From a virus (taxonomy: Duplodnaviria; Heunggongvirae; Uroviricota; Caudoviricetes): a stretch of 64,000 bases of DNA. The position numbers were made by a program, and so were the translations under genes. Positions within the stretch are counted from its first letter, which is position 1. Every line of letters begins with the position of its first letter. The notes beneath the pieces were generated by a model that was given only the letters and a program-made list of their open reading frames with translations, had not been told where the DNA came from and searched no databases. The stretch lies in the IMG/VR virus record IMGVR_UViG_3300031994_000063; one strand, 5' to 3'. Positions 2,121 to 33,089 of the stretch are shown in pieces.

Positions 2121-2156
2121 TTTGGTTATTCCAATTTTTTTTCATATCTTTGCATC
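2121..2156 (+). promoter_or_regulatory. Bacteroidetes sigma-A type promoter (TTTG, spacer, TATCTTTGC), drives the tRNA cluster
   Basis: tttggttattccaattttttttcatatctttgcatcg matches the -33 TTTG / -7 TAnnTTTG consensus. About 27 similar copies in the window. Confidence 0.6.
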
Positions 2157-2263
2157 GTCCAAATGGATAGAGGTTAAATGTTAGACCGAATAAGCCCATC
2201 AATAGAACGGTGGCTACCTTATTGACAGTGTGGGTACAAACCACTCCATTTGGACAATTTAAT

Positions 2264-2337
2264 GTCGGTATAGGCGAAGTGGTTAAGCCGTAACCCCCTC
2301 AAGGTTAAGATTGTTGGTTCAAATCCAACTACCGATA
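2264..2337 (+). tRNA. tRNA-Glu(CTC)? hand-folded
   Basis: Acceptor gtcggta/taccgat (one G·U). T-arm gttgg-ttcaaat-ccaac. Anticodon stem taacc/ggtta with loop ccctcaa. Position 33 is C, which is atypical. Confidence 0.45.
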
Positions 2338-2344
2338 CATATAA

Positions 2345-2419
2345 GGCCCAATGGAGGAATTGGTTAACTCGTTGCCCTTTCAAGGCAAAGATTGCTCAGT
2401 TCGAATCTGGCTTGGGTCA
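2345..2419 (+). tRNA. tRNA-Glu(TTC)
   Basis: Acceptor ggcccaa/ttgggtc. Anticodon stem ttgcc/ggcaa with loop ctttcaa. T-loop ttcgaat. Confidence 0.55.
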
Positions 2420-2520
2420 CTCATAAAAGTCTTGATGGTGTGGTACGTAACACTTAATAAAACTTCGGTTGGTCATCATAGTTCGTGAGACATACGTTCA
2501 TCGTTCATAGCGAACACTAT

Positions 2521-2607
2521 GCCATCGTGGCGCAACTGGTTGAGACGCAACCGTTTAAGGGGCGGTAAACCGAGAGGTTTCTGTGGGTTCGACTCCCACC
2601 GATGGTA
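2521..2607 (+). tRNA. type II tRNA-Leu-like (anticodon AAG?, long variable arm)
   Basis: Acceptor gccatcg/cgatggt. Anticodon stem accgt/gcggt with loop ttaaggg. Variable-arm hairpin aaacc-gaga-ggttt. T-arm gtggg-ttcgact-cccac. Confidence 0.5.
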
Positions 2608-2613
2608 CTTAGT

Positions 2614-2689
2614 GGGAACACACAGCAAGTATTTTTGATTTAACAAGTAATTAAATTTGGGTTTTAAAAGTACAGTTAAAAATGTTCCC
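2614..2689 (+). ncRNA. hairpin-bounded repeat element (GGGAACA..CACAGCAAG .. UGUUCCC), copy a
   Basis: 5' gggaaca pairs with 3' tgttccc. Conserved ACAGCAA follows the 5' stem. Member of a family of 12 or more copies. Confidence 0.5.
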
Positions 2690-2696
2690 TTAAAAT

Positions 2697-2767
2697 TGGG
2701 GTATGGTGTAATGGTAACACTACAGATTCTGGTCCTGTCATTCTTGGTTCGAATCCGAGTACCCCAA
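2697..2767 (+). tRNA. tRNA-Gln(CTG)
   Basis: Perfect 7-bp acceptor tggggta/tacccca. D-arm gtgtaatggtaacac. Anticodon loop ttctggt. T-arm cttgg-ttcgaat-ccgag. Confidence 0.6.
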
Positions 2768-2769
2768 CG

Positions 2770-2840
2770 AATGGTGGTTCGACTCCACCTCGCTGACCGA
2801 GATTGTGGTAAATTCAACAAAGGGGTTCGAATCCCCTTCC
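2770..2840 (+). other. two isolated T-arm-like hairpins (tggtggttcgactccacc; aggggttcgaatcccctt), probable tRNA remnants
   Basis: Canonical GGTTCGANTCC T-loops flanked by 4-5 bp stems. No acceptor or anticodon arms around them. Confidence 0.35.
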
Positions 2841-2872
2841 TATTATTGGGTAGAGGGTAAGTTGAGGTCATT

Positions 2873-2997
2873 TCAGTCAATGGTGTAATGGTAGCACACC
2901 TAGTATTGGCCTAGGAGGTTTCAAGCTATAGTGCATATGGGAAGGCTTGATGGCGTTAGGAATAACGGTGGTAGTTCGAATCTATCTTGGCTGACAT
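2873..2997 (+). ncRNA. tRNA-like gene with ~50-nt insertion between anticodon arm and T-arm (anticodon region tattggc, Gln-like)
   Basis: Acceptor gtcagtc/ggctgac. D-arm tggtgtaatggtagcaca. Anticodon stem cctag/ctagg. T-arm ggtag-ttcgaat-ctatc. Total ~125 nt. Confidence 0.35.
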
Positions 2998-3840: not shown

Positions 3841-3934
3841 CGAGGGGTAACGGCAGCGGTCTGTAAAACCGCCCTGCATTAACAAATTGTCGTAGTGGAC
3901 TCGCAGTAAGTGTGTTCAAGTCACACCCCCTCGA
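3841..3934 (+). tRNA. tRNA-Tyr(GTA)-like with 37-nt variable region
   Basis: Acceptor cgagggg/cccctcg. Anticodon stem gcggt/accgc with loop ctgtaaa. T-arm gtgtg-ttcaagt-cacac. Confidence 0.5.
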
Positions 3935-3963
3935 CAAAAAGGAATCTAACAGCAATTGATATA

Positions 3964-4045
3964 GACTTCAGACGGTTAGCTTAGTGGCTTAAAGCCTTGG
4001 ATTTTACCAAGAGAACGTAGGTTCGAATCCTGCACCACCTTAGTT
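3964..4045 (+). tRNA. tRNA-like (D-arm gctt-agtggctta-aagc, T-arm gtagg-ttcgaat-cctgc); anticodon unresolved
   Basis: Canonical D- and T-arms are visible. Acceptor pairing and anticodon loop could not be resolved by eye. Confidence 0.3.
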
Positions 4046-4132: not shown

Positions 4133-4214
4133 TCAGGCGGAAACGGCACATACAGTCTGCAACTAAGCCGTGTTTGATATAGCAGAGTTCGTTGGTTTGA
4201 ATCCAGCCCGCCTG
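4133..4214 (+). tRNA. tRNA-like (acceptor caggcgg/ccgcctg, T-loop tttgaat)
   Basis: 7-bp acceptor complementarity. T-arm gttgg-tttgaat-ccagc. Internal arms non-canonical. Confidence 0.35.
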
Positions 4215-4412
4215 ACGCATTGGGGGATTGTAGTCACCGCTTTGGACAATGCTAGGAAGTCTACATAGAAGAACAGACTTGATAAGAAGTAGGCAAATAA
4301 TAGTCATATAATAGTAGTACTGTAAAAATGATAACGATATGCTGAGGTAATTGATAGTAACTAGTAATGGTATCTGCTCGTAATGGTATATACTACTGTT
4401 CAATTTTTTAAA

Positions 4413-4490
4413 TGGGATAGTTGGCCGAGCGATTTAGGCGCAAGTTTGTGGCACTTGTTTAGGTTGGTTTGACTCCAACACTACCCCCAT
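4413..4490 (+). tRNA. tRNA-like with Ser/Leu-type D-region (ttggccgagcg), anticodon loop ttgtggc (GTG?)
   Basis: D-region matches TGGCCGAGCGG of class II tRNAs. Anticodon stem caagt/acttg. T-arm gttgg-tttgact-ccaac. Acceptor has one mismatch. Confidence 0.35.
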
Positions 4491-4507: not shown

Positions 4508-5446
4508 ATGACAAATCTTAAATTGCTTACATATAACGTTGATGGACTTCCAGAAACATTGGATTTGAATGACCTCCCTTGGTTGTTTAAACCCTTTGTA
4601 TGGATATATAAGCTAATAAAGGGTACAACTGTCATTACGATTAATGATAACGTAAATAAAAAAGAGAATAATGATAAAATTGCCAAATATTTAAATTCCT
4701 CTGATGCTGACATCATTGCGGTTCAAGAGGATTTTAACTACCATGACAACTTAATCTCTAAGTTGGATAAGAAATATAATTGCGGTACTTATCTCGGTGG
4801 TTTTGACCTTTCCAAGATATTCTCAAACACTGAGTGGTTAACATATTTCCCACTTCCTAGATTTAAATGTGATGGTCTTAACTTGCTAACCAAAAAAGAA
4901 AAAGTTACCACAATTAATGAAACCATTATATCATGGAAAAAGAATTGTGGGTATTTCAGCAACGCCAACGATGCATTAACTCATAAGGGGTATAGGTTTT
5001 ATGAAATTATGAAAGAAAACGTGAAAATTGGTGTGTATGTGATTCATATGGATGCCAATTACTATACCGCTGATACTACAGAGGCTCCAAAAGACATCAA
5101 GGCTAGAGAAGCACAATTGAAGCAATTGGCAAAAGACGTAATAGAAAATTCAAAGGGGAATAACCCATTGACAATAATCATAGGTGATACAAACAGTTAT
5201 AATCAATATTCTTGGGATGTAGATAACCTTAAAAAGAATTTAATTGAACCAATTGAATCAACATATAACTTAACAATACAAGAGGTTGTGCCACAGAATT
5301 TTGCAGACTGTGATAGAATATATACAATAAGTAATGTGGGATTACTGAAAACCTTGAATATCAAGAGTTGTTATTTTGATAAGGAAATGGAGGGGGTTTC
5401 TGACCACTTACCATTGGTTTGCGAAATAGAATTTGAAAAAAAATAG
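4508..5446 (+). CDS. endonuclease/exonuclease/phosphatase (EEP) family protein
   Basis: 312 aa. N-terminal LTYNVDG and IAVQE. C-terminal SDHLPL, the EEP SDHxP catalytic motif. Confidence 0.65.
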   Translation: MTNLKLLTYNVDGLPETLDLNDLPWLFKPFVWIYKLIKGTTVITINDNVNKKENNDKIAKYLNSSDADIIAVQEDFNYHDNLISKLDKKYNCGTYLGGFDLSKIFSNTEWLTYFPLPRFKCDGLNLLTKKEKVTTINETIISWKKNCGYFSNANDALTHKGYRFYEIMKENVKIGVYVIHMDANYYTADTTEAPKDIKAREAQLKQLAKDVIENSKGNNPLTIIIGDTNSYNQYSWDVDNLKKNLIEPIESTYNLTIQEVVPQNFADCDRIYTISNVGLLKTLNIKSCYFDKEMEGVSDHLPLVCEIEFEKK

Positions 5447-5505: not shown

Positions 5506-5647
5506 GGAAACATACAGCAAACATCTATTGATAGCATTTGACTGATAATCAAAGGGTCGTGAGTTCGAGTCTCACCCTCCCCACAAAAGGGAATAAAACT
5601 TGGGGAGGTAGCTCAGTTGGTAGAGAAAAATCAAAAAAATGTTTCCG
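5506..5647 (+). ncRNA. hairpin-bounded element copy b enclosing a circularly permuted tRNA-Ile(GAT)-like unit
   Basis: Closing helix ggaaacat/atgtttcc. Inside: anticodon stem tttga/tcaaa with loop ctgataa, variable gggtc, T-arm gtgag-ttcgagt-ctcac, 3' acceptor cctcccc. After a 17-nt linker comes the 5' acceptor ggggagg plus D-arm tagctcagttggtagag. Confidence 0.5.
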
Positions 5648-5748
5648 AAAATCATAGGGTAGGAATGGAGTTTGGTAACGCAGGAAGTATCCAAGGTTCT
5701 CCACGTTAAATAAAAAAACTGCGAGGTTTATCACTTGCATCGTTTTAT

Positions 5749-5821
5749 CTAGGTGTAGTTCAGTTGGTAGAATGCGTCATTTGGGATGATGTGGTCGGTG
5801 GTTCGAGTCCACTTACCTAGA
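5749..5821 (+). tRNA. tRNA-Pro(TGG)
   Basis: Acceptor ctaggtg/tacctag. Anticodon stem cgtca/tgatg with loop tttggga. T-arm ggtgg-ttcgagt-ccact. Confidence 0.6.
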
Positions 5822-5957
5822 CAAATTGGTGGTTCAGTAAGAGGATTGCGCAAGGCGGTACTAAAAGAAACTAGAGAGTAGTGAATCCTATGGATAGGTG
5901 AATAAATTCTGTAGGAACGCAGCCTATCGGCAACGTGGGTTCGAATCCCACACCATC

Positions 5958-6075
5958 AACTAAGGATACTTACAGCAAATGTAACTTTGTTACAATTTCT
6001 TGGTTCGAATCCAAGCTAAACCTATGGTTTAAGCACCCATTCGTGGGTATTGGTATATTAAAACAAAAGTATCCG
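5958..6075 (+). ncRNA. hairpin-bounded element copy c (ggatact..tacagcaa..agtatcc) with internal T-arm and UUCG hairpin
   Basis: Closing helix ggatact/agtatcc. Internal cttgg-ttcgaat-ccaag and ccca-ttcg-tggg. Confidence 0.45.
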
Positions 6076-7744: not shown

Positions 7745-7816
7745 GCGAGTGTAGTTCAATGGTTAGAATGGGACCCTTCCAAGGTTCATATGACGGTTCG
7801 ATTCCGTTCACTCGCT
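7745..7816 (+). tRNA. tRNA-Gly(TCC)
   Basis: Perfect acceptor gcgagtg/cactcgc. Anticodon loop cttccaa. T-arm gacgg-ttcgatt-ccgtt. Confidence 0.65.
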
Positions 7817-7822
7817 CAACGT

Positions 7823-7971
7823 GGAAACGTACAGCAATGTATATCGTTTTAAAAAGCATTCCAAGCTAGGGGTCGCAGGTTCGAGTCCTGTCCGCCACTC
7901 AATTTTATAAACTATAATGTGGCGGTAGCTCAGTTGGATTAGAGCACTAAAAATAAACAACAAACGTTTCC
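7823..7971 (+). ncRNA. hairpin-bounded element copy d enclosing a permuted tRNA-like unit (3' half then 5' half)
   Basis: Closing helix ggaaacg/cgtttcc. Inside: T-arm gcagg-ttcgagt-cctgt plus 3' acceptor ccgccac, then a 21-nt linker, then 5' acceptor gtggcgg plus D-arm tagctcagttggattagagc. Confidence 0.5.
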
Positions 7972-7988
7972 TTTTTAAAACAATAAAA

Positions 7989-8191: not shown

Positions 8192-8264
8192 GCAGACGTA
8201 TATCAATTGGTAGATAGCCATCTTGCCAAGATGGAGGTTGGGGAATCGTACTCCCTCGTCTGCT
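8192..8264 (+). tRNA. tRNA-Gly(GCC)
   Basis: Acceptor gcagacg/cgtctgc. Anticodon stem ccatc/gatgg with loop ttgccaa. Non-canonical T-loop. Confidence 0.55.
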
Positions 8265-8288
8265 CTTTTCAGTAAGAAACTTAACAAT

Positions 8289-8492
8289 ATGGAAAAATGT
8301 ATGCGTTGTAAGCATGAGATAATTCTAGAAGGAAACTTTATGCTTAGTGAAATCAACGGAGAAGAATTGAATGAAGATGATGATACGATGGTGACTTATG
8401 CACATTGCCCTTATTGTGGCGCAAGGTATGAGTTGACAGATACACCAGAATCTGAAAAGAGGAATTATCCATATTGGAAGATTGGGGTGTAG
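8289..8492 (+). CDS. small zinc-ribbon protein (CxxC ... CxxC)
   Basis: Trimmed from table ORF 8223-8492, which starts inside tRNA-Gly. MEKCMRCKHE ... HCPYCGARY. Confidence 0.5.
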   Translation: MEKCMRCKHEIILEGNFMLSEINGEELNEDDDTMVTYAHCPYCGARYELTDTPESEKRNYPYWKIGV

Positions 8493-8573
8493 CTTAGACA
8501 GTAAAAGCACATGCCTTATAAGCATGAGATAGTGGGAGCATTACCCATCGCCCCTACAATCTTTTTTTACAAA

Positions 8574-8701
8574 GGAAGCAAACAGCAATATTTGTTTAAA
8601 ACAGCTAATCGTAATTGATTTCGTGGGTTCGAATCCCACACTTTCCTAGATGAAAGTTGGTGGAGTGGGTAAACACGGCAGTCCAAAAACAATTGTTTCC
8701 G
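8574..8701 (+). ncRNA. hairpin-bounded element copy e (ggaagcaa..acagcaa .. ttgtttcc) with internal T-arm gtgggttcgaatcccac
   Basis: Terminal complementarity with one G·U. Internal T-arm plus acceptor-like helix actttc/gaaagt. Confidence 0.45.
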
Positions 8702-9270
8702 ATTATGCGCCTATGGGGGAATTAGTAGACCCGTTAGTCTTAGGAACTAATGTTGAAATATACGTATCAGTGCAAGTCTGATTAGGCGTACAAAAGGTGC
8801 TACGACAAGACTGAGGAAGCCAATTTGATAGTGGCGAGTTCGTATAACGCTGTAGTTAAATGGTATTTGAGTAACAGCCTTTATTAATAGGTATAGGTCA
8901 GTAGGCTTGGAAGCAGCCATCTGTTAAAGAGTGACAGTACTCAGTAAGTGGTGAGGTAATATGTTTTATGGGTTTACACCTCGTGCAAAAACCCTAGGTG
9001 CATCTAGATAATTTGGGAGTTGCAAATCCCTAACTGGCGAGAGACGAGAGGTCGAAGTCGGAGAGTCTGGAATATAAGACCGAATGAGGCTCGTGAAGTC
9101 AAGCTAGAGAACCTTTAAAGCCGCTGCTGGACTCTTGGACGAAACAGTAAACGTAAATCGTGAGGCGTAAAGTTAACTGCGCTGTCTTTGGCGTAACAGC
9201 ACACCTGTAACTATTTATTTTTAGTTGATATTTATTATTATTAAATAATAGGTATCAACTTTTTAATATT

Positions 9271-9757: not shown

Positions 9758-9966
9758 TAAGGTATATCTAATCTGAGAGTAAGTGGGCGATTAGTAGGAA
9801 AAGAATGCGGATGGCGTGAAATAATTAGTTGCGCAACACACGTTGTCTTATAGGTTCTGACTGAAAGTCGCATAGGAATGGGCAAATAGATTGGGTTGGT
9901 ATCGAGTTTGCCAAATGGAAAGAGTTATGCCACCTAAAGTAACTCTTGTGTATCAGATTAAAAAAT

Positions 9967-10621
9967 GCATCCGTAGCTCAATTGGACAGAGCAACGGCCT
10001 TCTATTTAAATTGGATGCATAGGCGAGAAATCCCTATGTAGAATCTCCCTAAAACGGTGGAAGTCCTAGTTAAAATTGAAGACCCTTAGTACTTATAAAG
10101 GAAAGTGGAATACGGTTTCAATGGCTTGCAGCAAACGTAAACTGCATCTGAAACAATAAGGAAGGATAATACCGTGCTAAATTGAATGTAGAGGCGAAAA
10201 AATCTCTAATGAGAATGAAAATACGCTTCAGAAAAGTTAATGATTAAGTATGCTACATTCATAAATGTGTAGAGAGTATATAGGAGATATGAGGGAAATA
10301 CATTGAATACCCTCACATTCTATTCAGATGTATCTGATAAGAATGCCTAAGTTGAAATTAAAGATGGTAGTCCAAACAGGTTAGAATGCGAAGATAAAAG
10401 TAGTATTACTATGGAAGTAGAACGCCAATCTGACTTGCAAGAATTTCAATATGGTAATAATGTATTCCAGACCACAATAAAATTATCAGATTCAAGAAGC
10501 AAATAACCGTGAAATTCGGTCGCGTGTGTATAATCAAAGCTCGCGGAAAAGATGATTTTAGCTATGGTAACATAGTGTGACAGGAAGCCGTAGGTTCTGG
10601 GTTCGAGTCCCAGCGGATGTA
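9967..10621 (+). tRNA. split tRNA-Arg(TCT) interrupted by a ~580-nt intervening sequence (group I-like intron candidate)
   Basis: 5' exon 9967-10003: acceptor gcatccg, D-arm tagctcaattggacagagc, anticodon 5' stem acggc, loop start cttct. 3' exon 10585-10621: aa, anticodon 3' stem gccgt, variable aggtt, T-arm ctggg-ttcgagt-cccag, 3' acceptor cggatgt. All stems complementary. Upstream exon ends in U, intron ends in G. aagatggtagtcc at 10361-10373 resembles the group I S element. Confidence 0.5.
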
Positions 10622-10627
10622 CTAATT

Positions 10628-10716
10628 GACCCTATAAAACGTAATTGGATGACCGTCACTGTCCTCTAAACAGTTCTACCGAGAGGTAGTTGGGGGTTCG
10701 AATCCCTCTAGGGCCA
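10628..10716 (+). tRNA. tRNA-Arg(TCT)-like with long variable arm
   Basis: Acceptor gacccta/tagggcc (6 of 7 bp). Anticodon stem actgt/acagt with loop cctctaa. Variable hairpin ctacc-gag-aggtag. T-arm ggggg-ttcgaat-ccctc. Shares 5' region aaaacgtaattggatgaccgtc with the 11109 gene. Confidence 0.4.
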
Positions 10717-10760
10717 CAACGTATCTAGGAAGCCCAGTTGCGCCTAGCTGCATGTTAGTA

Positions 10761-10913
10761 GGAACGTACAGCAGTTTGATTTAAATTTACAAAACATTTT
10801 TAATTATTAATCAGACTAGACGAAGATAAGAGAAGCGTTAAATAATCATTGCGAGGCACTTATCTATGCTCTTCGGAGCGAATGCCGAGTCAAGGCAGTA
10901 AATTGACCGTTCC
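10761..10913 (+). ncRNA. hairpin-bounded element copy f (ggaacgtacagcag .. cgttcc)
   Basis: Terminal helix. Internal UUCG hairpin gctc-ttcg-gagc. T-tract after the 3' stem. Confidence 0.45.
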
Positions 10914-10946
10914 TTTTTCTTTGAACGCAATTGACACAAAATAAAT

Positions 10947-11101
10947 GGAAACGTACAGCAGTTGACGAATCAAATTACATATTCAACTTAAAATCTCCAT
11001 GATTTTAATTAGGCAAAGGGTCGCATACCGCATTATAATAGCGAATAATAGTAACTAATTGTGATGGTCTGAATAAATGACTAGAATAAACCTACGTTTC
11101 C
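10947..11101 (+). ncRNA. hairpin-bounded element copy g (ggaaacgta cagcag .. tacgtttcc)
   Basis: 9-bp terminal complementarity. T-tract follows. Confidence 0.45.
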
Positions 11102-11108: not shown

Positions 11109-11197
11109 GTAGAGGTAAAACGTAACTGGATGACCGTCCTAGTCTACGAAACTAGTGTATCGAAAGGTACTTGTGGGTTCGAATCCCACCCTCTATA
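11109..11197 (+). tRNA. tRNA-Arg(ACG)-like with long variable arm
   Basis: Acceptor gtagagg/cctctat. Anticodon stem ctagt/actag with loop ctacgaa. T-arm gtggg-ttcgaat-cccac. Confidence 0.45.
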
Positions 11198-11216
11198 CAA
11201 AATCAAATTTCCAAAT

Positions 11217-12062: not shown

Positions 12063-12400
12063 AAAAAAAAATAAAAAAAAAAAATACAAAAAATAGAACT
12101 TTTTGAGAGTTAAATAATAATTATAGAAAAATCAATTAAACTTTTATATTATGAATACAACTATTAAAAATATCGTTAATACAATTTCTAATTCATTTGC
12201 GGATAGTAAATGGAACGATACAGTTGTGTTTAACTCAAAGGTTCTAGAACAGCTAGAAGGTGATATGGAGGTTTGAAAGATTATGTAAATAGGCACTTAC
12301 TTCACTATATATTTCCCAAGCTGTTGATGAACTCCAAAAAAAGTAATCAGCAGCTTTTTTATATATTATGGGTTAATGAAAGTTAATTTATTTACAAAAA

Positions 12401-22277: not shown

Positions 22278-22838
22278 ATGGCAGTAGGTGTTATCATTGC
22301 AAGAATACAGCCCATACATAAAGGGCATCTTGAGTTAATACGGCAAGCACTAAACGAGAATGAAAATGTTCTTCTGCTCGTTGGTTCTGCCGATAAACTC
22401 AATAAAAGGAATCCAATACCAATTGCTATGAGATTGGAACTCGCTAATAAGGCGATAGAAGAGGCATTTAAAGAGGACTCTAAAAGGGTTAGAATACAAC
22501 CATTAGCAGACCTTACAGATGAATCGGACAACTCTCATGATTGGGGCTTTTATCTCTATAGTCACATTGTTGGGTTTACAAAATCTCCAGAGTTTACAAT
22601 ATATTACTCTGATGGTTTTGAGATAATTATGCAGTGGTTTCCACCTTTCATTACGAGAGATTTCGTATCATTCAAACTTAATGCAAGGGGAACTATCCAC
22701 AATAGTCTGTCTGCTACGAAAGTAAGGGAAATGATTCTTAAAGAGGATATTGAAAGCCTTAGAGAAGCAGTTCCAACTTGCGTTATAGAAAATGCAATGA
22801 TTTTGAAACATTTTATTGAAGCGTTTAAAGACGTATAA
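22278..22838 (+). CDS. nicotinamide/nicotinate mononucleotide adenylyltransferase (NadM-type)
   Basis: GVIIARIQPIHKGHLELIRQA matches the GRFQPxHxGH nucleotidyltransferase motif of archaeal-type NMNAT. Confidence 0.7.
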   Translation: MAVGVIIARIQPIHKGHLELIRQALNENENVLLLVGSADKLNKRNPIPIAMRLELANKAIEEAFKEDSKRVRIQPLADLTDESDNSHDWGFYLYSHIVGFTKSPEFTIYYSDGFEIIMQWFPPFITRDFVSFKLNARGTIHNSLSATKVREMILKEDIESLREAVPTCVIENAMILKHFIEAFKDV

Positions 22839-22979: not shown

Positions 22980-23053
22980 CGAGGGGTATATCAGTTGGTT
23001 AGATTGTCATCCTGATAAGATGAAGGTCGCAAGTTCAAGTCTTGCCCTCTCGA
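22980..23053 (+). tRNA. tRNA-Ile(GAT) second copy
   Basis: Acceptor cgagggg/cctctcg. Anticodon arm identical to the 15964 copy. T-arm gcaag-ttcaagt-cttgc. Confidence 0.55.
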
Positions 23054-23500
23054 CAATTTTTTATCATGGGCTTGTAATGGATTTGACAGCAATGCATTTG
23101 GTAAGAAACAAGCAGTGGGCATACACTTGAAATAGCAAAAAAAATATAAACGGCGAGAATGTTAATTCTCCTGCTTACGAGTACGCTATTGCAGCGTAAG
23201 TAAGCCGAGAGGCTAGGCTCTTAGGAACAGAACATCCTAGCATTCTTTCTTTAGTCATCTTTTAGTTTTCCTTGTTTTCACAAAACAAGGTGGTCTCAAA
23301 GGCGGTGTCTTCGGACACTTTGGGGAAGCTTGTATAATTTCTTATGGAATGGTTGTTTGGACCGCAGTTCGACTCTGCGCAAGTCCACTTAACTACTTGA
23401 AAATCAAACGCTTAACAAAATTTAAGAAAAAACTTCTTGAAAATTTTGGAACTTTCAAAAATTTTATATATCTTTGCATTGTTAAACAAAAAGACATACA

Positions 23501-23841: not shown

Positions 23842-23906
23842 GGAAACTTACAGCAAATTATTCTTAACATCAAATTGTCACTTTGAAACGTTTAGAAAAG
23901 GTTTCC
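23842..23906 (+). ncRNA. hairpin-bounded element copy i
   Basis: ggaaac ttacagcaa ... ggtttcc. Confidence 0.45.
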
Positions 23907-23924: not shown

Positions 23925-24009
23925 CGTGGGATAGTGTAATGGTAACATGCAAGGCTCATAACCTTGAGACGGAACTCGCATCGTGTTGGTTCGAATCCAA
24001 CTCCCGCAA
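23925..24009 (+). tRNA. tRNA-Met(CAT)-like with C1·A72 and 18-nt variable region
   Basis: Anticodon stem caagg/ccttg with loop ctcataa. T-arm gttgg-ttcgaat-ccaac. 3' end tcccgcaa resembles bacterial initiator tRNA. Confidence 0.45.
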
Positions 24010-24012
24010 CTA

Positions 24013-24170
24013 ATTTTGTGGTGGACAAATCAAAAAACCACCTTTTGGAAGATACCAGAGGAGAACGTCAGTAATGACGATGTAGACAAATGGGCATTAA
24101 GTTCGTGCTTAATGTGTCACTTCGGTGGCTTCGCTAGTGCAAATCTAGCTCTACCAACAAATGTAGTATA
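24013..24170 (+). ncRNA. structured small RNA, copy 1 of a ~160-nt duplicated element
   Basis: Hairpins ggtgg..ccacc, acgtca-GUAA-tgacgt (GNRA), cattaag-ttcgtg-cttaatg, tcac-UUCG-gtgg, gctag-tgcaaat-ctagc. Second copy at 24316 carries compensatory changes in three helices. Confidence 0.6.
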
Positions 24171-24315: not shown

Positions 24316-24474
24316 TTGTGGTGGACAAGTTAAAAAACCACCTTTTGGTTAGTACCAGAGGAGAACGTCAGCAATGACGATGTAGACAAATGGGCATCAA
24401 GTTCGTGCTTGATGTGCTTCTTCGGAAGCTTCAGCAGTGCAAATCTGCTCTAACCAACTAGATATGCCTTTTCG
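24316..24474 (+). ncRNA. structured small RNA, copy 2 of the duplicated element
   Basis: ~88% identical to copy 1. Helices catcaag/cttgatg, cttc-UUCG-gaag and agcag/ctgct preserve pairing through double substitutions. GCAA replaces GUAA in the tetraloop. Confidence 0.6.
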
Positions 24475-25588
24475 TGCCGTAGACAACGGTAAAAATGGGT
24501 TTTATGTGGTTAAACAATCCATATCTATGGTAACTTCGGGAGCCATAATTCTAGAGAACGTGTACTAGAAAAAAATGAATTGGGGAAGGTATTCTATAAT
24601 GGTGTAAAGAATTGGAGCTTGGGATAGAAGCCCACCTCGTAAGAGGAAGCAGTTTACTGATTATAATAATCCAAAATGGAAATAATACCCAAAAGAATAA
24701 GCCGATTCTAAGAGGAAATATCTTGTGAAAGATATAAGGCTGATGGCTAGCTTTCGTAGCCAGATAGAAGGATAATCCAGTGATGGGATAAATGAGACGG
24801 ACATTGACAACTAAGCCGACTCAGATGCTCTGGTTTCCCAGAGCATTTCACTGAAAAGCATATGGTACGGTATGTCGTTCGGTAGGTAAACTGTGGGACA
24901 TACTACCTAGGTTAACCGCTTAGGTTGAGTAGTGATACAATAGATTACCATATGGAACTCGATACAATAGTCACCAGTTGGCGTGTTGGGTTCAAGTAAA
25001 CATTCGTCTTAACGTGAAAGGCGTGGTCTATAAGCGTTAAGAACCGTAAGGCTGAGAATGGGTATTAGTGCTACAGACCTGTGGTGGGTTTGGCATAGGA
25101 AGGCGATTTAGTGGGCTGTGTTCAAAAGACACGGATGCTAAGGGTCGCACCTCGTCTTCCATTAGTTGTGAGTTGTAGCTCAAGTGGTAGAGCAGCCGAC
25201 TTGAAATCAGCGTGTTACAGGTTCGATTCCTGTCGATTCTAATAATAGAATTATAGAAGCAAAAGTGTGCGACACTGAGCAGATAAAATGCACTTATCTC
25301 TCCTGCAATATGGAGGCATCGGTGACTCGCAAGGAATCCGATGAACGAGTAAAAGTAGTCATCTGAGTTAACAGGAGGCATCCTGTGAATCCGCAAGAGC
25401 TTGGTGGTGAAATGAATGTTATGATTCTGTACCGAGAGGTTTAAATCAGTAAGAGTTTGGTAGTTTTCGCAAAACTATCGTGCATGATGTCTACGTCTGC
25501 CGTAAGGTAGCGTGTGAAGAGCAAGTTCCAACGCTTGTATAAAGGCATCAACAATAAGGTCAAATTCTCAGCCTTTTTGTATTTATAT

Positions 25589-25713
25589 AGGGATTTAGCT
25601 TAATTGGCAAGAGTAATTTGTTGCGACTTAAGGAATAAAGCACTCTCGACTTCGGAACAGAGTGTGCCTTTAACTGTTAATAAACGATGGCGGTTCGAGT
25701 CCGTCAGTCCCTG
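25589..25713 (+). ncRNA. tRNA-like with ~50-nt insertion (contains repeat tctcgacttcggaacaga)
   Basis: Perfect acceptor agggatt/agtccct. D-arm tagcttaattggcaagag. T-arm ggcgg-ttcgagt-ccgtc. Total 125 nt. Confidence 0.35.
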
Positions 25714-25856
25714 CAATAAGTAATTCTCATGGGGTATAAACACGTTGGGTGGTGACCTGCTGGTCGGTTTCATGCATAAGAAGACCATACGAGAGGCGGT
25801 AAATATAAGACCTCTTGGAGTTCGAATCTCCAATACTCCACTTAAACAATTAACAT

Positions 25857-26183: not shown

Positions 26184-26230
26184 GGTCAAATGGTTGTAAT
26201 GAAGGTTCGATTCCTTCTGACTAACAAACG

Positions 26231-26302
26231 GGGGTATAGGCTAACAGGCTAAACTGATAGCTTTGCAAGCTATATTTGAGAGTTCGAGTCTCTCTACCTC
26301 CA
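26231..26302 (+). tRNA. tRNA-Ala(TGC)
   Basis: Acceptor gggggta/tacctcc. Anticodon stem atagc/gctat with loop tttgcaa. T-arm gagag-ttcgagt-ctctc. Confidence 0.6.
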
Positions 26303-26385
26303 CTAAGGTATTGGATAATGCTACGATGAGTAGGTAAAGAGTTTCGTAGTGTGGCTTTACCGTTTCCAATTCCTTAACCAATAGT

Positions 26386-26458
26386 GGGAACTTACAGCAA
26401 TGACTATATGGAATTTGCTTGAAACGAATACAACCGAAAAAAGTTCCCTTCAGCACAA
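26386..26458 (+). ncRNA. hairpin-bounded element copy j
   Basis: gggaactt acagcaatg ... aagttccc. Confidence 0.45.
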
Positions 26459-26684
26459 AACTTACGATAGAGGCGTAGGGGTACAAGCGTGGGCTAACGT
26501 TAACTGAATTAACAGCTACTGAGGGTGTGAGTAATTACATCTAGGCGTAATGGTGGACACTTAGTAATAGCCTTATTGGTGTGCCGAAGTGCTCAATGTC
26601 AAGTCCTTATGGGATAAAAGAAATCTTGGCGGTTGAGAATAACGAGATTCCAGATGAAAGTACCTCCGTAAGTTTTATTAATCA

Positions 26685-26768
26685 TGGGGTGATGTAGTGG
26701 TAACATGACGGTCTCATAAGCCGTATACGCTTGAAACGCTTGCGTTGGTTCGAATCCAACCCCCTTGA
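26685..26768 (+). tRNA. tRNA(CAT)-like with long variable region
   Basis: Anticodon stem acggt/gccgt with loop ctcataa. T-arm gttgg-ttcgaat-ccaac. Acceptor pairing imperfect. Confidence 0.4.
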
Positions 26769-26773
26769 CATAA

Positions 26774-26839
26774 GGAAGCATACAGCAATGTTTTAATAGG
26801 ACTTGATTTGTAATCAAATATTCTAGAAAAATGTTTCCG
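26774..26839 (+). ncRNA. hairpin-bounded element copy k
   Basis: ggaagcat acagcaatg ... atgtttccg followed by a T-tract. Confidence 0.45.
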
Positions 26840-29220: not shown

Positions 29221-29721
29221 ATGAAAGATAAATTAAGAATATTGGGTGTAGAATTACTCAATTCAAATTTGACGATTGGCACAGTAGAACATTGCACTAG
29301 TGGTTTACTTGGCGCATCCATATCAAGTATGTGTGGACTAGATACAGTTTATTGCGGAACAATAGTTGTTGTTGACCAACCCCATATGGAGAAACTATTA
29401 GATGTATCGCCTAACGCAATAAAAAACAATGGGCTTGTAAGTTCCCAAGTGGCTTGCCAAATGGCTCTAAATGGTCTTTATAAGTTAAATACAGATATTT
29501 GTGTTGCGGTGGTTGGTAATGTATTGCCTACGGAAGACTTTAATGAGGATACTTATAATGTCGTTTGGATTTGTATTGCGACAATGACAGATAAAAAAGT
29601 AGATTTTAAATATAGCAAAATACAAGTAGATGGATTACGAGGCCAAAACATTGAAACTGTAATTGAGTCTGCTTTAGAAACTCTTATAGTTGAAATTAAA
29701 CACATTACTGTTGAAAAATAA
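29221..29721 (+). CDS. pncC: CinA-C/PncC-like NMN deamidase
   Basis: LTIGTVEHCTSGLLGASIS matches the CinA C-terminal domain motif (lT.A.AESCTGG). Confidence 0.6.
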   Translation: MKDKLRILGVELLNSNLTIGTVEHCTSGLLGASISSMCGLDTVYCGTIVVVDQPHMEKLLDVSPNAIKNNGLVSSQVACQMALNGLYKLNTDICVAVVGNVLPTEDFNEDTYNVVWICIATMTDKKVDFKYSKIQVDGLRGQNIETVIESALETLIVEIKHITVEK

Positions 29722-30510: not shown

Positions 30511-30574
30511 TAAATTTGGCTATTCCAATGTTTTTTCATATCTTTGCATTGTGAAACAAAAAACATTATAAGTT

Positions 30575-30727
30575 ATGATTAACGAATATGACGATTATTT
30601 AGATGAATCCCTTTACGAGGATTACGATGAAGACTATGATGATGACCCCATTTTTGATGACGAATTTGACGATGATTGGGACTATTTTAATTTCCTCAAC
30701 TGCTTCAATAGGAGCTTCTACAATTAA
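30575..30727 (+). CDS. highly acidic small protein (50 aa, ~50% Asp/Glu)
   Basis: MINEYDDYLDESLYEDYDEDYDDDPIFDDEFDDDWDYF... directly after a consensus promoter. Confidence 0.5.
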   Translation: MINEYDDYLDESLYEDYDEDYDDDPIFDDEFDDDWDYFNFLNCFNRSFYN

Positions 30728-30870
30728 ATAAAGATATAGCCAAAGAGAGTCTAACGTAGGATTCGTATATGCGCTGAAACGGAAAGAAATTGGCTTAAAT
30801 GTGTTAGAGTCTAGGCGTAAAACACGGCATATGCGATAGAATTAAATTGAAAGTTCCTTTGGCAATTTGG

Positions 30871-30944
30871 GGGCCTTTAGCTTAGTTGGTTAAAGCAAAA
30901 CACTCATAATGTTGAGACCGCAGGTTCAAGTCCTGCAAGGCCCA
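30871..30944 (+). tRNA. tRNA-Met/Ile(CAT)
   Basis: Acceptor gggcctt/aaggccc. D-arm tagcttagttggttaaagc. Loop ctcataa. T-arm gcagg-ttcaagt-cctgc. Confidence 0.55.
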
Positions 30945-31050
30945 CGATGGCATCAGAGTCATTAGGTGACAGGCCATTACCTTTTGAAAGTTCGATACCA
31001 TTCTAGGTACTTAGGTCTTTGCTATAATAGACGATATAAACAGATAGCGC

Positions 31051-31124
31051 CGCAGAGTGGAGCAGTTGGTTAGCTTGCCCCACGCATAATGGGGAGGTCG
31101 GTAGTTCGAATCTATCCTCTGCAA
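31051..31124 (+). tRNA. initiator-like tRNA-fMet(CAT)
   Basis: C1·A72 mismatch with otherwise paired acceptor cgcagag/ctctgca. Anticodon stem cccca/tgggg (G-C rich next to the loop). Loop cgcataa. Confidence 0.5.
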
Positions 31125-31142
31125 CTAAGAAATATATAGTGT

Positions 31143-31502
31143 ATGGATAAAGAATTAACATTTAAAGACGTATATATGCCACCATTTTATATTGGTGGAT
31201 TCAAAATTTATGGCTTCAGCAAGAACGGAACTAAAACATTTACAGCGTTTGGGGATGTTGCGCAATCGCATATGTTTAACATTGTGGGCATTCTCAATGG
31301 TGAGTCATCTGAAAAATACAATAAAAAAGATGTAACTGTAGAGAAAGACAAACTATACATCAATGGTAATCTGATTATGGTTCGTGGTTGGGGAAAACTC
31401 ACTGGAACTGGGGAAGGGTGTTATCATCTTAACCACACGGATGCAGCAAAACTCCAAGATAAATTTATCCAATGGGTTGTAGATACGATTACTGAGGATT
31501 AA
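31143..31502 (+). CDS. hypothetical protein
   Basis: 119-aa ORF. No motifs recognised. Confidence 0.5.
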   Translation: MDKELTFKDVYMPPFYIGGFKIYGFSKNGTKTFTAFGDVAQSHMFNIVGILNGESSEKYNKKDVTVEKDKLYINGNLIMVRGWGKLTGTGEGCYHLNHTDAAKLQDKFIQWVVDTITED

Positions 31503-31592
31503 TTATTAAATGATGTTAACAAATTTGGTTAAACCATTTTTTTTTTCATATCTTTGCATCGAATTTCAAACAACTAATTTAAATATTAAAAC

Positions 31593-32414
31593 ATGAAGAA
31601 ATTTTTAGTAGCATTTTCGCTTGCCGTTGTAGCAATGGCAAGTATGACAAGTTGTCATGGTGTACGTCCAGAGGCTGATGAAGAGGCGGTTCTCGTTGAT
31701 AAACCTTGGTTTTTGGGGCATGGCGGCATTAACATGACTCCAGTACAGACTGGTTTGTCATGGGTTTGGTGGAGCACGTCTTCTGAGACATTTAAGATTG
31801 TTCCGTTCAAGCATCAAGTGGATATGGACGATTTGTTCTCTGATGACAACACACCGTTGGATTTTCATACCATTATCATCACACAGATTGAGAAGGGTAA
31901 GTCTCCTATTCTGTTGCAGAATTATGGTGTAGATTGGTTCAATACTAACTTGTATAACTATTACTGTAACTTGGTACGTGACCATATTTCTCAGCATAGT
32001 CCTTTTGACCTTATGAGTAATCGTGCAATCCTCAATGAAATTGACACAAAGGTACTTAAGCAGATGCAAGATTATGTGGCAAAGTTGTCCAAGGAGAAAG
32101 AGTTTCCAGTTGTCATAAAACAAGTTACCATTGGTAAGGCTATGCCTAATAAGGAGCAGTTGGCCGAAATGAACAATACGGCAAAGGCTGTGCAAGCAAA
32201 GCAGACTCAAGAGCGTGAGGCAGAGGTACAGTTAGCTCGTGAAAAGGCTGAACGTCAGAGGGCAATTGCTGATAAGGCATATATGTCAGCACTGAACCTT
32301 ACAGTTCCTCAATACATTGAACTGCGTAAGTGGGAAGTCATTGAAAAGAAGAATGGTGCTAACATTGACGTAGTTGTCGGTGGAGGTACAGCAATGATGT
32401 ATCCAGTAAAATGA
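31593..32414 (+). CDS. lipoprotein, possible SPFH/band-7-like C-terminal region
   Basis: MKKFLVAFSLAVVAMASMTSC lipobox. C-terminal Ala/Glu/Gln-rich helical segment. Higher GC than neighbours. Confidence 0.45.
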   Translation: MKKFLVAFSLAVVAMASMTSCHGVRPEADEEAVLVDKPWFLGHGGINMTPVQTGLSWVWWSTSSETFKIVPFKHQVDMDDLFSDDNTPLDFHTIIITQIEKGKSPILLQNYGVDWFNTNLYNYYCNLVRDHISQHSPFDLMSNRAILNEIDTKVLKQMQDYVAKLSKEKEFPVVIKQVTIGKAMPNKEQLAEMNNTAKAVQAKQTQEREAEVQLAREKAERQRAIADKAYMSALNLTVPQYIELRKWEVIEKKNGANIDVVVGGGTAMMYPVK

Positions 32415-32613
32415 CGAACTAAGGGTATACAACCTTCCCTTTTCTATCGCGTAATGGTGTGACGCATAAGGTTGTGGAGTGGTTGCCCTCAAGCAACTGA
32501 CTGGGTTGTCGGAATTCGAGTCTGTGTGGGTTTTAAACCGTCTCGTTGGTTGAGTACAACTGTTGCCTTTAGGTGGAATGAGCAACGCTAGCAAAATCAA
32601 TCCACCGCTATAC

Positions 32614-32690
32614 TCCCTTCGTCTAATGGCTAGGACAACAATAGCGCGACGCTGGAGAACGAGGTTCGATTCCTTGAGGGGGTACAAACA
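32614..32690 (+). tRNA. tRNA-like (acceptor actccct/agggggt, D-arm gtctaatggctaggac, T-arm cgagg-ttcgatt-ccttg); anticodon arm aberrant
   Basis: Acceptor, D- and T-arms are good. No canonical 7-nt anticodon loop. Confidence 0.35.
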
Positions 32691-32699
32691 TTTAGGAAT

Positions 32700-33089
32700 A
32701 TGGATAAAAAAGTTGTAAGTGTTGTGGTGGATGGGGTTGAAAAAGAAAAAATCACCATTGGTGAAGCCAATGAAAGAAAAAAAACATTTTCCCCACTTTT
32801 AGTAAATAACATTTGTTATGAGGAATTACGGGATGCGAGGAAAAAGGTGAAAACGACTAATTATGGCACAAGTTTTGACCTTGAAAATTTAATTAAATAC
32901 TTACAAGAAATACATTCTAAATTTGGTAATATGGATGTATTATATTATAATGGAAAAACTGAATGTTTTACTCGTCCATCTTTATCAGATATAGATGTGG
33001 TCAAAAAATATTTTACTATTTCTGGAAACATGGAAACAAAAAATATGGAAATAAAAAATGATAAAGCTTTATCATTTTTTCATTCATGA
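32700..33089 (+). CDS. hypothetical protein
   Basis: 129-aa ORF. No motifs recognised. Confidence 0.5.
   Translation: MDKKVVSVVVDGVEKEKITIGEANERKKTFSPLLVNNICYEELRDARKKVKTTNYGTSFDLENLIKYLQEIHSKFGNMDVLYYNGKTECFTRPSLSDIDVVKKYFTISGNMETKNMEIKNDKALSFFHS

Follow-up and report, generated by a model that had tools for sequence, protein, structure and literature searches.

The usual reading of a phage tRNA island is that it supplies codons or, in more recent work, spares against tRNA-cleaving immunity. A 64,000-nt stretch of Caudoviricetes DNA (IMG/VR virus record IMGVR_UViG_3300031994_000063; hereafter the window) carries an island of roughly 30 kb in which many elements depart from standard tRNA architecture, and the question raised by this locus is whether the departures reflect decay or function. 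The initial annotation counted 40 or more tRNA or tRNA-like genes, a number borne out by 33 decoding tRNAs, about 20 tRNA-like elements, a transfer-messenger RNA (tmRNA) and a GOLLD RNA, and proposed that these genes are under relaxed or unusual constraints. Relaxed constraint does not fit, as the deviant elements recur in relatives and their extra helices show compensatory changes; unusual constraint does, the odd shapes being conserved with paired positions that change together. Most of the structural oddities are conserved adaptations and not decay. Nor is everything in the island a tRNA: GOLLD (which holds the "tRNA" at 25169-25241), a probable intron, a family of closing-stem RNAs and a 125-nt motif are other RNA classes, and several island components appear to be undescribed.

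Relatives were identified in IMG/VR by protein-anchored searches; their contigs measure 295,155 to 412,753 bp, protein identities are 41-96%, and the window is thus a piece of an uncultured jumbo phage. Judged from its sequence, the island is probably a translation and RNA module of this phage, in which variant tRNAs and tRNA mimics would be matured by tRNA-processing enzymes; maturation by phage-specific factors, as also proposed at first, is plausible. A large share of a tRNA island can be conserved RNA that is tRNA-shaped yet not tRNA.

Unusual tRNAs and tRNA-like elements

The island was defined as positions 2150-32700 on the + strand, and the union of ARAGORN and Rfam tRNA calls was counted there. 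ARAGORN, including intron mode, returned 30 tRNAs and the tmRNA in the window together with an intron in a tRNA-Arg gene; its further, low-scoring "intron" readings (2874 as Ser, 5784-5960 as Thr, 26128 as Thr, 24346 as Leu, and others) scored 90-104, clash with better parses and were not adopted. The Rfam tRNA model RF00005 gave 31 matches in the window over its gathering score (29 bits), at 36-72 bits, and the union of the two methods in the island is 33 decoding tRNAs. Calls at 8483, 14639, 17617, 17778, 39484 and 25589 came from Rfam only, and those of His 4415, Gly 8192, Leu 8707, Arg 11109 and CAT 31051 from ARAGORN only. The first list of isotypes was largely right, having missed His 4415, and Arg(CCT) 36070 and CAT 39381 lie outside its range. 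About 33 decoding tRNAs score as tRNAs by RF00005, which does not match the elements at 2874, 3841, 4134, 5827, 14226, 25731, 32612 and 61085 and accepts 25589 only with a 60-nt insert (36.2 bits). A strict T-arm scan (5-bp stem and loop [TG]T[CT][GA]ANN) found 49 sites on the + strand and one on the - strand, far beyond chance, and about 20 of the 49 belong to elements outside standard tRNAs.

Insertions annotated at four of these loci (2874-2994, 14226-14335, 25589-25713 and 61085-61171) are real and go beyond a choice of folding. At 25589, the 53-nt insertion is kept by eight homologues (72-96% identity), across which the inner helix reads CACUCU/AGAGUG, CAGUCU/AGAUUG, CAAUAC/GUAUUG or CAAUGC/GCAUUG and the apical loop, CGACUUCGGAAC, is nearly invariant. 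RNAalifold on these homologues revealed 12 pairs with double compensatory changes and a consensus fold that is one long arm with only 1-nt bulges in the insert and no anticodon loop; the tRNA introns that proteins splice in archaea and eukaryotes have a bulge-helix-bulge motif where exon and intron meet. A tRNA-Asn with an intron was rejected for this element, since orthologues would swap GTT for GAT and the consensus is a single arm; alternatively, it may have a GCG/ACG (Arg) anticodon with an insert at 37/38. In 2874, the anticodon loop is UAUUGGC (A at position 33) and the 53-nt variable region forms two hairpins, one of them GNRA-capped, conserved in four distinct relatives. The orthologue of 14226 in relative L010 shares the acceptor stem, the hairpin that replaces the D-arm and the T-arm, and has a 5-nt loop where the window has 38 nt (33 nt absent). 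A functional decoder has U33 in an anticodon loop of 7 nt; as read from the sequence, 2874 has A33, the loop of 3970 is 6 nt long, and 25589, 32612 and 14226 have no standard anticodon loop.

Orthologues of almost every odd element were found in relatives. The elements at 2874, 3841, 4134, 5827, 14896, 22098, 25731 and 32612 have a full 7-bp acceptor stem (6/7 pairs in 22098) and a canonical T-arm, and are 78-100% identical in relatives; the tRNA-Ala-like 14896 is identical at 73/73 positions in L005, where an EndoV-like protein is only 59% identical. Isolated T-arm stubs, first counted as three, do exist and number four (2773, 2821, 13820 and 26201), all unpartnered. The divergent T-loops reported for decoding tRNAs are likewise present: TGCAAGT in Asn 14639 and the 9-nt loops TGGCGGAAT and TTGCAAAAT in Lys 17617 and 17778, respectively.

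Long variable arms occur, as annotated, in Trp(CCA) 19832, Met(CAT) 23925, 26683 and 39381, Arg(TCT) 10628, Arg(ACG) 11109 and CTA 28055, the supposed Tyr case being the D-arm-less tRNA-like element 3841-3934. Both Arg tRNAs carry a 5-bp variable stem capped by a GNRA loop, and in relatives this stem is replaced by compensatory pairs (CUACC/GGUAG, GUAUC/GGUAC, CUGUC/GACAG and CACCA/UGGUG) with the anticodon constant (TCT, ACG or CCT). In four phages, the 87-nt CCA tRNA has the same anticodon and a variable stem that covaries; the CUA anticodon, together with an 8-bp stem and its GAGA loop, is kept in three; and the long CAT tRNAs conserve a variable region of 17-18 nt without a clear helix. 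In relative L003 (~5174-5265), a class-II-shaped paralogue of the CCA tRNA has a GTT (Asn) anticodon, and the long-arm architecture is thus joined to yet another class I anticodon.

None of the 36 tRNAs listed encodes CCA. A C directly follows the discriminator base (N73) in 34 of the 36, followed by A or T, the exceptions being the GOLLD-embedded tRNA and the tRNA-like 3970. The same C stands after tRNA-like elements and opens most loops of the permuted hairpins described below (N-C-A); as first trailer base it may be a 3'-processing signature. Together with an open reading frame (ORF) for a CCA-adding enzyme in the window, the lack of encoded CCA and the C after the discriminator lead us to propose that the phage enzyme completes the 3' ends.

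The closing-stem/ACAGCAA family

Thirteen units in the window share an 8-bp closing stem (GGAAACNN...NNGUUUCC) whose 5' strand is followed by ACAGCAA, and a partial fourteenth (GGAATCTA-ACAGCAA) lies at 3941. Five of them (5506, 5964, 7823, 8574 and 18500) hold a permuted tRNA-like module that runs from the T-arm through a closed acceptor hairpin to the D-arm; what had been annotated as a permuted tRNA-Ile is indeed permuted, and is one of these five modules of a repeated small-RNA family. The two 155-nt units at 10760 and 10947 carry ACAGCAG, and many relatives have the first of them, with identities of 78-97%. Variants of the closing stem covary (GGAAACAU/AUGUUUCC, GGAAACGU/ACGUUUCC, GGAUACUU/AAGUAUCC, GGGUACA/UGUACCC, GGGAACUU/AAGUUCCC and AGAAGCAU/AUGCUUCU), with further types in relatives. 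Strict units number 10 on the + strand and 0 on the - strand, and shuffled sequences average 0.44. The units lie 3-7 nt from neighbouring tRNA ends (e.g. Leu-unit-Gln, 2521-2768, and Ile-unit-Leu, 8483-8791), and a T-run follows many of them.

In the permuted units, the acceptor hairpin shows many pair types per position (e.g. U-A, A-U, C-G and G-C at one column), counts that come from sequences parsed by anchors and pre-selected for pairing. RNAalifold on orthologues of 18500 selected by BLAST, independently of pairing, recovered the closing stem, T-arm and acceptor hairpin. A covariance model built from six sequences, the 18500 orthologues, matches 5506 (55 bits), 7823, 8574, 23842, 5964, 39467 and 2614 at E ~1e-3 or better, and 22178, 26386 and 26774 more weakly; all matches end where the units had been set by eye.

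A metagenome scan using GGAAACNTACAGCAA plus a T-arm placed the family in at least 120 contigs, nearly always inside co-oriented tRNA islands and in permuted, non-permuted and plain forms. Among the matches listed (683 kb), ARAGORN found 845 tRNAs (12.4 per 10 kb), with a tRNA at 117 of 120 loci; tRNAs lie on the same strand as the motif by 1030 to 1, and for 37 of 112 motifs the start lies no more than 10 nt from the 3' end of a tRNA. The family thus belongs to tRNA islands in general on uncultured contigs, presumably those of phages. A scan of species genomes returned one true member and three chance matches. The true member lies on a contig (L066, CALAVA010000259.1, 1-8000) of a Bacteroidales-binned metagenome-assembled genome (MAG), with 18 co-oriented tRNAs in 8 kb and the closing-stem/ACAGCAA unit directly after a tRNA-Gly; this contig represents a phage that was binned together with its host, or else a prophage, and offers a lead to the host. 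Two closing-stem units had no blastn match in deposited phages. The family is absent from Rfam 15, and no description of its motif was found in the literature searched, the incomplete coverage of which makes this weak evidence of absence.

An interrupted tRNA-Arg gene, GOLLD and the genome context

The tRNA-Arg gene annotated as split is interrupted, and is read here as one intron-containing gene. ARAGORN places the 581-nt insert after position 37, just 3' of the anticodon, and the orthologue is uninterrupted in L010 and L005. A scan of IMG/VR with a conserved 23-mer found the same element at the same site in three isotypes: Arg(TCT) (L057, L058), CAT (L056, L063, L064) and class II Leu(TAG) (L060). 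The Arg gene of the nearest relative (L002/L022) has a decayed 5' exon, and L005 has a copy just downstream of the intact tRNA that ends in its own T-arm and acceptor strand. The triplet before the conserved TGCATAGG tracks the anticodon (GGA with TCT, GTG with CAT), giving a U36.G wobble at the junction, and the terminal base of the element is G in 5 of 6 copies. From seven copies, RNAalifold predicted a hairpin on the 5' side and a long-range helix (AUCUCC/GGAGAU) around two others (ACGGU/ACCGU and GUCC/GGAU) whose internal loops are A-rich; also predicted were a hairpin that covaries, a long UUGAAAUU/AAUUUCAA helix and, at the 3' end, a three-way junction closed by CCAC/GUGG (covarying to CUAC/GUAG) with a GYAA-capped hairpin. 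In a group I layout these would give P3, P4, P5, P6, P8 and the 3' junction.

On balance, these features favour a group-I-like self-splicing intron. Like group I introns in bacterial tRNA anticodon loops, the element is ORF-less, sits in the anticodon loop, is missing from orthologues and occurs in several isotypes; its internal triplet would pair with the anticodon through the U36.G wobble, most copies have the terminal G, the terminal hairpin is GNRA-capped, and the helices fit the order P3-P4-P5-P6-P7-P3'-P8-P7'-P9. Its length of 500-600 nt is roughly double that of cyanobacterial tRNA introns. Several points count against this assignment. Rfam group I and group II models do not match 9960-10630 even at E<=10, and an identity with ROOL or known introns was rejected for want of an Rfam match; P7 (GAGUAUAU/AUGUAUUC), which crosses P3, is weak, having been placed by hand with one compensatory pair (C-G in L061) and an uncompensated change in L002/L022; and the Leu(TAG) copy fits neither the U.G nor the terminal-G pattern in the same register. 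A match to the S half of classical group I R/S elements was dropped because it is not conserved and lies in the wrong order. The element was not found by blastn in deposited phages. If an intron, it would add a type of mobile intron that moves between phage tRNA genes.

In the main rival reading, the 581-nt element is no intron but a large stable RNA for which the tRNA halves serve as scaffold, tmRNA-like and the reverse of the tRNA embedded in GOLLD. The failure of every intron model would suit this idea, as would the copy in L005 beyond an intact tRNA and the remains in L002/L022, where only an acceptor-like 5' strand (ACATCCG), a T-arm and a 3' strand are left around the element. It is nevertheless less likely, as the insertion point is identical in three tRNA isotypes with both exons intact, the intron-proximal triplet covaries with the anticodon, the last nucleotide is G in most copies, and the helices can be arranged as in group I introns, including a pseudoknot of P3 and P7.

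Downstream of a CAT tRNA, an 831-nt block with 77-89% DNA conservation in relatives is GOLLD: its 3' half covers the whole of model RF02032 (positions 1-416) at E 6e-20 and 82.3 bits, short of the 150 bits set as gathering score, and its layout is that of GOLLD, with a conserved 3' and a variable 5' domain, a length of ~800 nt, neighbouring tRNAs and a tRNA in the linker. GOLLD RNAs lie near phage tRNA islands and can hold tRNAs in their linker (PMC12286853). The 3' part aligns by blastn to records of Lak phages, mycobacteriophages and a Flavobacterium phage. Upstream of GOLLD, a motif of ~125 nt occurs twice in the window and in 2-6 copies in each relative covering the region (L005 13631-15496, L006 6809-7598, L007 14384-17053). 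It has no Rfam match; RNAalifold predicted five helices with compensatory changes in 23 of 36 pairs, and the stretches AUACCAGAGGAGAAC and GAUGUAGACAAAU and the loop UGCAAAU are invariant. The motif may bear on the cage function of GOLLD.

Table 1. Features of the window discussed in the text; all lie on the + strand.
Feature	Coordinates	Detection or score
tRNA-Glu(CTC)	2264-2338	ARAGORN, Rfam
tRNA-Glu(TTC)	2345-2420	ARAGORN, Rfam
tRNA-Leu(AAG), class II	2521-2608	ARAGORN, Rfam
Short closing-stem units, simple hairpins of 63-76 nt	2614-2689, 22178-22249, 23842-23906, 26386-26448, 26774-26838	
tRNA-Gln(CTG)	2697-2768	ARAGORN, Rfam
Two T-arm hairpins without matching 5' acceptor strand	2773-2789, 2821-2837	
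121-nt tRNA-Gln(UUG)-like	2874-2994	7-bp acceptor stem, Gln-type D-arm
94-nt tRNA-like: acceptor stem, T-arm, loop CUGUAAA (GUA), 37-nt variable region, no D-arm	3841-3934	
tRNA-like with 6-nt anticodon loop, after GGAATCTA-ACAGCAA	3970-4041 (whole 3941-4041)	Rfam 38.7 bits
82-nt tRNA-like: acceptor stem and T-arm without standard D and anticodon arms; kept in relatives	4134-4215	
tRNA-His(GTG), T-loop TTTGACT	4415-4488	ARAGORN; not listed by Rfam
Closing-stem unit, permuted tRNA-like module	5506-5646	Rfam YrlA 33.3 bits; covariance model 55 bits
tRNA-Pro(TGG)	5749-5822	ARAGORN, Rfam
133-nt tRNA-like: acceptor TGGTGGT/ACCATCA, canonical T-arm; 100% identity in nearest relatives	5827-5959	
Closing-stem unit, permuted T-arm and acceptor hairpin, then T-run	5964-6074	covariance model
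tRNA-Gly(TCC)	7745-7817	ARAGORN, Rfam
Closing-stem unit, permuted tRNA-like module	7823-7971	Rfam YrlA 34.6 bits; covariance model
tRNA-Gly(GCC), divergent T-loop ATCGTAC	8192-8265	ARAGORN
tRNA-Ile(TAT), T-loop AGCATTA	8483-8557	Rfam
Closing-stem unit, permuted, between tRNA-Ile(TAT) and tRNA-Leu(TAG)	8574-8700	covariance model
tRNA-Leu(TAG)	8707-8791	ARAGORN
tRNA-Arg(TCT) split by 581-nt ORF-less putative intron (~10004-10584)	9967-10622	ARAGORN with long introns
tRNA-Arg(TCT), class-II-shaped	10628-10717	ARAGORN
Two 155-nt closing-stem units without T-arm, between long-arm Arg tRNAs	10760-10914, 10947-11101	
tRNA-Arg(ACG), class-II-shaped	11109-11198	ARAGORN
tRNA-Phe(GAA)	12495-12571	ARAGORN, Rfam
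tRNA-Thr(TGT)	14049-14122	ARAGORN, Rfam
110-nt tRNA-like: stable hairpin in place of D-arm, variable tip at anticodon-arm position	14226-14335	
tRNA-Asn(GTT), T-loop TGCAAGT	14639-14714	Rfam
tRNA-Ala(TGC), G3:U70, odd D-arm	14896-14968	
tRNA-Ser(TGA)	14983-15071	ARAGORN, Rfam
tRNA-Ile(GAT)	15964-16038	ARAGORN, Rfam
tRNA-Ser(GCT)	16050-16137	ARAGORN, Rfam
tRNA-Lys(TTT), 9-nt T-loop, first of three tandem Lys	17617-17689	Rfam
tRNA-Lys(TTT), canonical, second of tandem	17697-17772	ARAGORN, Rfam
tRNA-Lys(CTT), 9-nt T-loop, third of tandem	17778-17850	Rfam
tRNA-Thr(CGT)	18291-18363	ARAGORN, Rfam
Closing-stem unit, permuted tRNA-like module, degenerate D-arm	18500-18628	RNAalifold, covariance model
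87-nt class-II-shaped tRNA, CCA (Trp) anticodon	19832-19918	ARAGORN, Rfam
tRNA-Val(TAC)	21658-21729	ARAGORN, Rfam
Weak tRNA-like, 97-100% conserved in relatives; acceptor pairs 6/7	22098-22174	
tRNA-Ile(GAT)	22980-23054	ARAGORN, Rfam
tmRNA, tag GENVNSPAYEYAIAA	23068-23390	Rfam RF00023 73.4 bits, full model (threshold 47); ARAGORN
86-nt CAT tRNA, 18-nt variable region	23925-24010	ARAGORN, Rfam
~125-nt five-helix motif, two copies	24034-24159, 24333-24459	
GOLLD RNA, conserved 3' half 25098-25574	24744-25574	
Class-I tRNA, UGA anticodon, in GOLLD linker	25169-25241	
125-nt tRNA-like, anticodon arm with 53-nt extension	25589-25713	
110-nt tRNA-like, G3:U70 acceptor stem, canonical T-arm	25731-25840	
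tRNA-Ala(TGC)	26230-26303	ARAGORN, Rfam
87-nt CAT tRNA	26683-26769	ARAGORN, Rfam
92-nt class-II-shaped CUA (amber-reading) tRNA, 8-bp variable stem, GAGA loop	28055-28146	ARAGORN, Rfam
75-nt CAT tRNA	30871-30945	ARAGORN, Rfam
75-nt CAT tRNA, C1xA72 initiator-like mismatch	31051-31125	ARAGORN
73-nt tRNA-like, anticodon arm reduced to short stem and triloop	32612-32684	
tRNA-Arg(CCT), outside 2150-32700	36070-36143	ARAGORN, Rfam
84-nt CAT tRNA, outside 2150-32700	39381-39464	ARAGORN, Rfam
Closing-stem unit enclosing non-permuted tRNA-like with GCA loop	39467-39561	covariance model
CCA-adding tRNA nucleotidyltransferase ORF (PolyA_pol head, RNA-binding and HD domains)	57076-58482	Pfam
87-nt tRNA-like, expanded anticodon region	61085-61171	
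RNA ligase-domain ORF (PF09414)	61409-62317	Pfam

The G+C content of the window is 35%, GC skew is positive throughout, and the + strand carries essentially all genes, with small ORFs interspersed among the RNA elements of the island. Outside tRNAs and GOLLD, no near DNA match of the window was found among 50,697 deposited phage records, bar one CAT tRNA. This tRNA, 23925-24010, is 86% identical to an unannotated stretch in the crAss-like Bacteroides phages PhiCrAssBcn22 and 23, and is the sole near match of the island to deposited phages outside GOLLD. Reading TAG, TGA or TAA as sense merges no ORFs in the window, and stop-codon recoding was therefore dropped as a cause of the non-coding stretches. 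Upstream of tRNA-Phe, 12306-12373 weakly matches the Rfam Hammerhead HH9 model (19.5 bits, E 0.25; gathering score 52), probably by chance.

Besides the CCA-adding enzyme and the RNA ligase (Table 1), both encoded downstream of the island, Pfam domains outside it include DHFR, NUDIX, CinA, HIT and a cytidylyltransferase-like protein. Genes of the cytidylyltransferase-like (NMNAT-type), CinA-domain, NUDIX and isochorismatase families (22278-22838, 29221-29721, 41888-42481 and 59319-59969) are scattered through and after the island, and recall the NAD+ salvage sets that gut jumbo phages reportedly carry. The ORF at 43263-44450 encodes 395 amino acids with four tandem repeats of ~60 amino acids and treble-clef/DUF723-type zinc-finger matches, as well as weak matches to the tRNA-splicing endonuclease N-terminal domain tRNA_int_end_N2 (E 0.0056) and to Rpp14/Pop5 (E 0.009), both under curated cut-offs. 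No splicing endonuclease domain passed the Pfam threshold.

Proposed roles and comparison with known systems

In the proposed working of the island, RNase P and RNase Z would cut long transcripts at every acceptor/T-arm unit, freeing tRNAs and tRNA-like RNAs; the same two cuts, falling a few nt from tRNA ends, would release the closing-stem/ACAGCAA RNAs and would open the loops of the permuted acceptor hairpins, and the phage CCA-adding enzyme would complete the 3' ends after cutting. Decoding tRNAs, including the class-II-shaped Arg, Met, Trp and CUA species and the T-loop variants, would supply phage translation, with amber codons read by the CUA tRNA, and their altered shapes may make them poor substrates for host tRNA-cleaving defences. 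The tRNA-like elements, which retain an acceptor/T-arm half or a T/D elbow without a normal anticodon loop, and the closing-stem RNAs would most probably act as mimics, serving as scaffolds or decoys for tRNA-binding proteins; display of a tRNA-like module from a closing stem would parallel YrlA-type Y RNAs. Precedents for anti-defence roles have been described (PMC10264068, PMC11464382, PMC11555353, PMC13056530).

Some observations weigh against this account. In-frame use of TAG is not evident in the 64-kb window, where TAG as sense neither extends nor merges ORFs, and the need for a CUA tRNA is thus unproven here; any TAG recoding would lie elsewhere in the genome. None of the 14 window ORFs of at least 300 amino acids encodes a TROVE/Ro60 protein, and since the units also lack an Rsr-binding motif (see below), a Ro-type partner is not supported. 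Recent exchange of island segments, and not selection, could lie behind the high identity between distant phages; compensatory changes therefore weigh more than identities. The anti-defence and decoy roles are argued purely by analogy.

A more speculative extension, offered tentatively and by analogy, is that the closing-stem RNAs form a widespread, undescribed class in which a clamp, excised by RNase P and RNase Z, shows interchangeable tRNA-derived modules and a GGAAAC/ACAGCAA platform binds a conserved phage or host factor. They would then be Ro-independent counterparts of Y RNAs, acting as decoys for defence nucleases or as recruiters of tRNA enzymes, and the class-II-shaped Arg, Met, Trp and CUA tRNAs, as a decoding set of distinct structure, would escape recognition by host tRNases. 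The family is a concrete new target for studying the role of tRNA mimicry in infection, and the class-II-shaped Arg, Met and Trp tRNAs probe the extent to which the shape of a tRNA matters to synthetases and to defence nucleases.

Other explanations account for parts of the data. The reading closest to relaxed constraint, that the deviant elements are decaying tRNA pseudogenes, would explain the missing 5' exon and uncompensated P7 change in L002/L022, the unpartnered T-arm hairpins and the low ARAGORN scores of several "intron" calls, and is quite improbable given that phages with protein identities of 52-96% conserve most of the odd elements at 80-100%, that the extra helices stay paired through double changes, and that all of these elements lie on the transcribed strand with a common C-after-N73 signature. 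Closing-stem units might instead be DNA-level mobile repeats of the type of miniature inverted-repeat transposable elements, spread in intergenic DNA, being multi-copy with inverted-repeat ends of ~8 nt and variable interiors. This is highly improbable: they keep one orientation, with the tRNAs, both in the window and among the metagenome matches listed, their arms change compensatorily and include G.U pairs that work only in RNA, ACAGCAA is asymmetric, and the interiors are structured tRNA-like modules. Somewhat less remote, though still unlikely, is that tRNA-like elements and closing-stem units are mainly RNA-processing punctuation: cleavage there by RNase P and RNase Z would part neighbouring tRNAs and small messenger RNAs and stabilise them, and the excised pieces would have no function. 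Their closeness to tRNA ends, in the window and in the metagenome matches listed, and the interspersed small ORFs agree with such a role. Punctuation needs an acceptor/T minihelix only, however, and leaves unexplained the invariant ACAGCAA beside a covarying stem in at least 120 contigs, the conserved apical loop of 25589 and the conserved D-arm of the permuted modules.

Among known RNAs, YrlA comes closest to the permuted units. The YrlA model RF02553 aligns to a T-arm, a hairpin and a D-arm in each of 5531-5648 and 7851-7973, and YrlA and the units share the order closing-stem 5' strand, T-arm, acceptor-like stem-loop, D-arm, 3' strand. In YrlA RNAs, Rsr is presumed to contact a GNCGAAN0-1G motif close to the 5' end (PMC4201824), whereas the 5' regions of all 13 units lack it and have GGAAACNN-ACAGCAA in its place; one internal match lies in 10760-10914. 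The alignments score 33.3 and 34.6 bits, where the gathering score is 69 bits; non-permuted tRNA-like elements and plain hairpins, too, are enclosed by this closing stem; and the units occur many per genome, inside tRNA islands. A YrlA gene adjoins a Ro60/TROVE gene of the same strand. With the motif missing, no TROVE protein among the 14 longest window ORFs and half of the gathering score, identity with YrlA was rejected.

In the permuted tRNA genes of the red alga Cyanidioschyzon and in two-piece tmRNA, the 3' half precedes the 5' half and the two are joined by a short loop. The units resemble these genes in that the T-arm and acceptor 3' strand precede the acceptor 5' strand and D-arm, and the Rfam beta_tmRNA model weakly aligns the T-arm and hairpin of 5559-5610 (22 bits). 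They differ in that their ends give an 8-bp open stem, ACAGCAA and A-rich linkers, with no tag reading frame; an anticodon stem-loop could not be rebuilt from the ends of the permuted units, in which the anticodon stem survives as 0-3 bp. The stable RNAs C and D of phage T4 (species 1 and 2) are small RNAs of unknown function that are co-transcribed with tRNAs and freed by tRNA-processing enzymes. Their likeness to the RNAs described here, as small stable RNAs in a phage tRNA cluster, is one of description only and serves as a lead.

The class-II-shaped tRNAs recall allo-tRNAs (Mukai et al., PMC5389517), in which long variable arms likewise go with anticodons for class I amino acids; allo-tRNAs are found in metagenomes, phages among them, and may have suppressor or regulatory roles. 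Allo-tRNAs have a 12-bp acceptor branch split 8/4 or 9/3 between acceptor and T-stem (PMC5389517), whereas 10628, 11109, 19832, 23925, 26683, 28055 and 39381 are all drawn by ARAGORN with a 7-bp acceptor and a 5-bp T-stem; the tRNA-Sec model gives 10628 only 26 bits. As a whole, the island resembles the tRNA arrays of megaphages and other huge phages (e.g. the Lak phages of Prevotella) and the mycobacteriophage arrays with GOLLD. Like them, it combines co-oriented tRNAs by the dozen with a tmRNA, a suppressor tRNA and GOLLD beside a Met tRNA; it is set apart from them by three RNA elements absent from Rfam 15 and by its non-standard elements, about a third of those that bear a T-arm.

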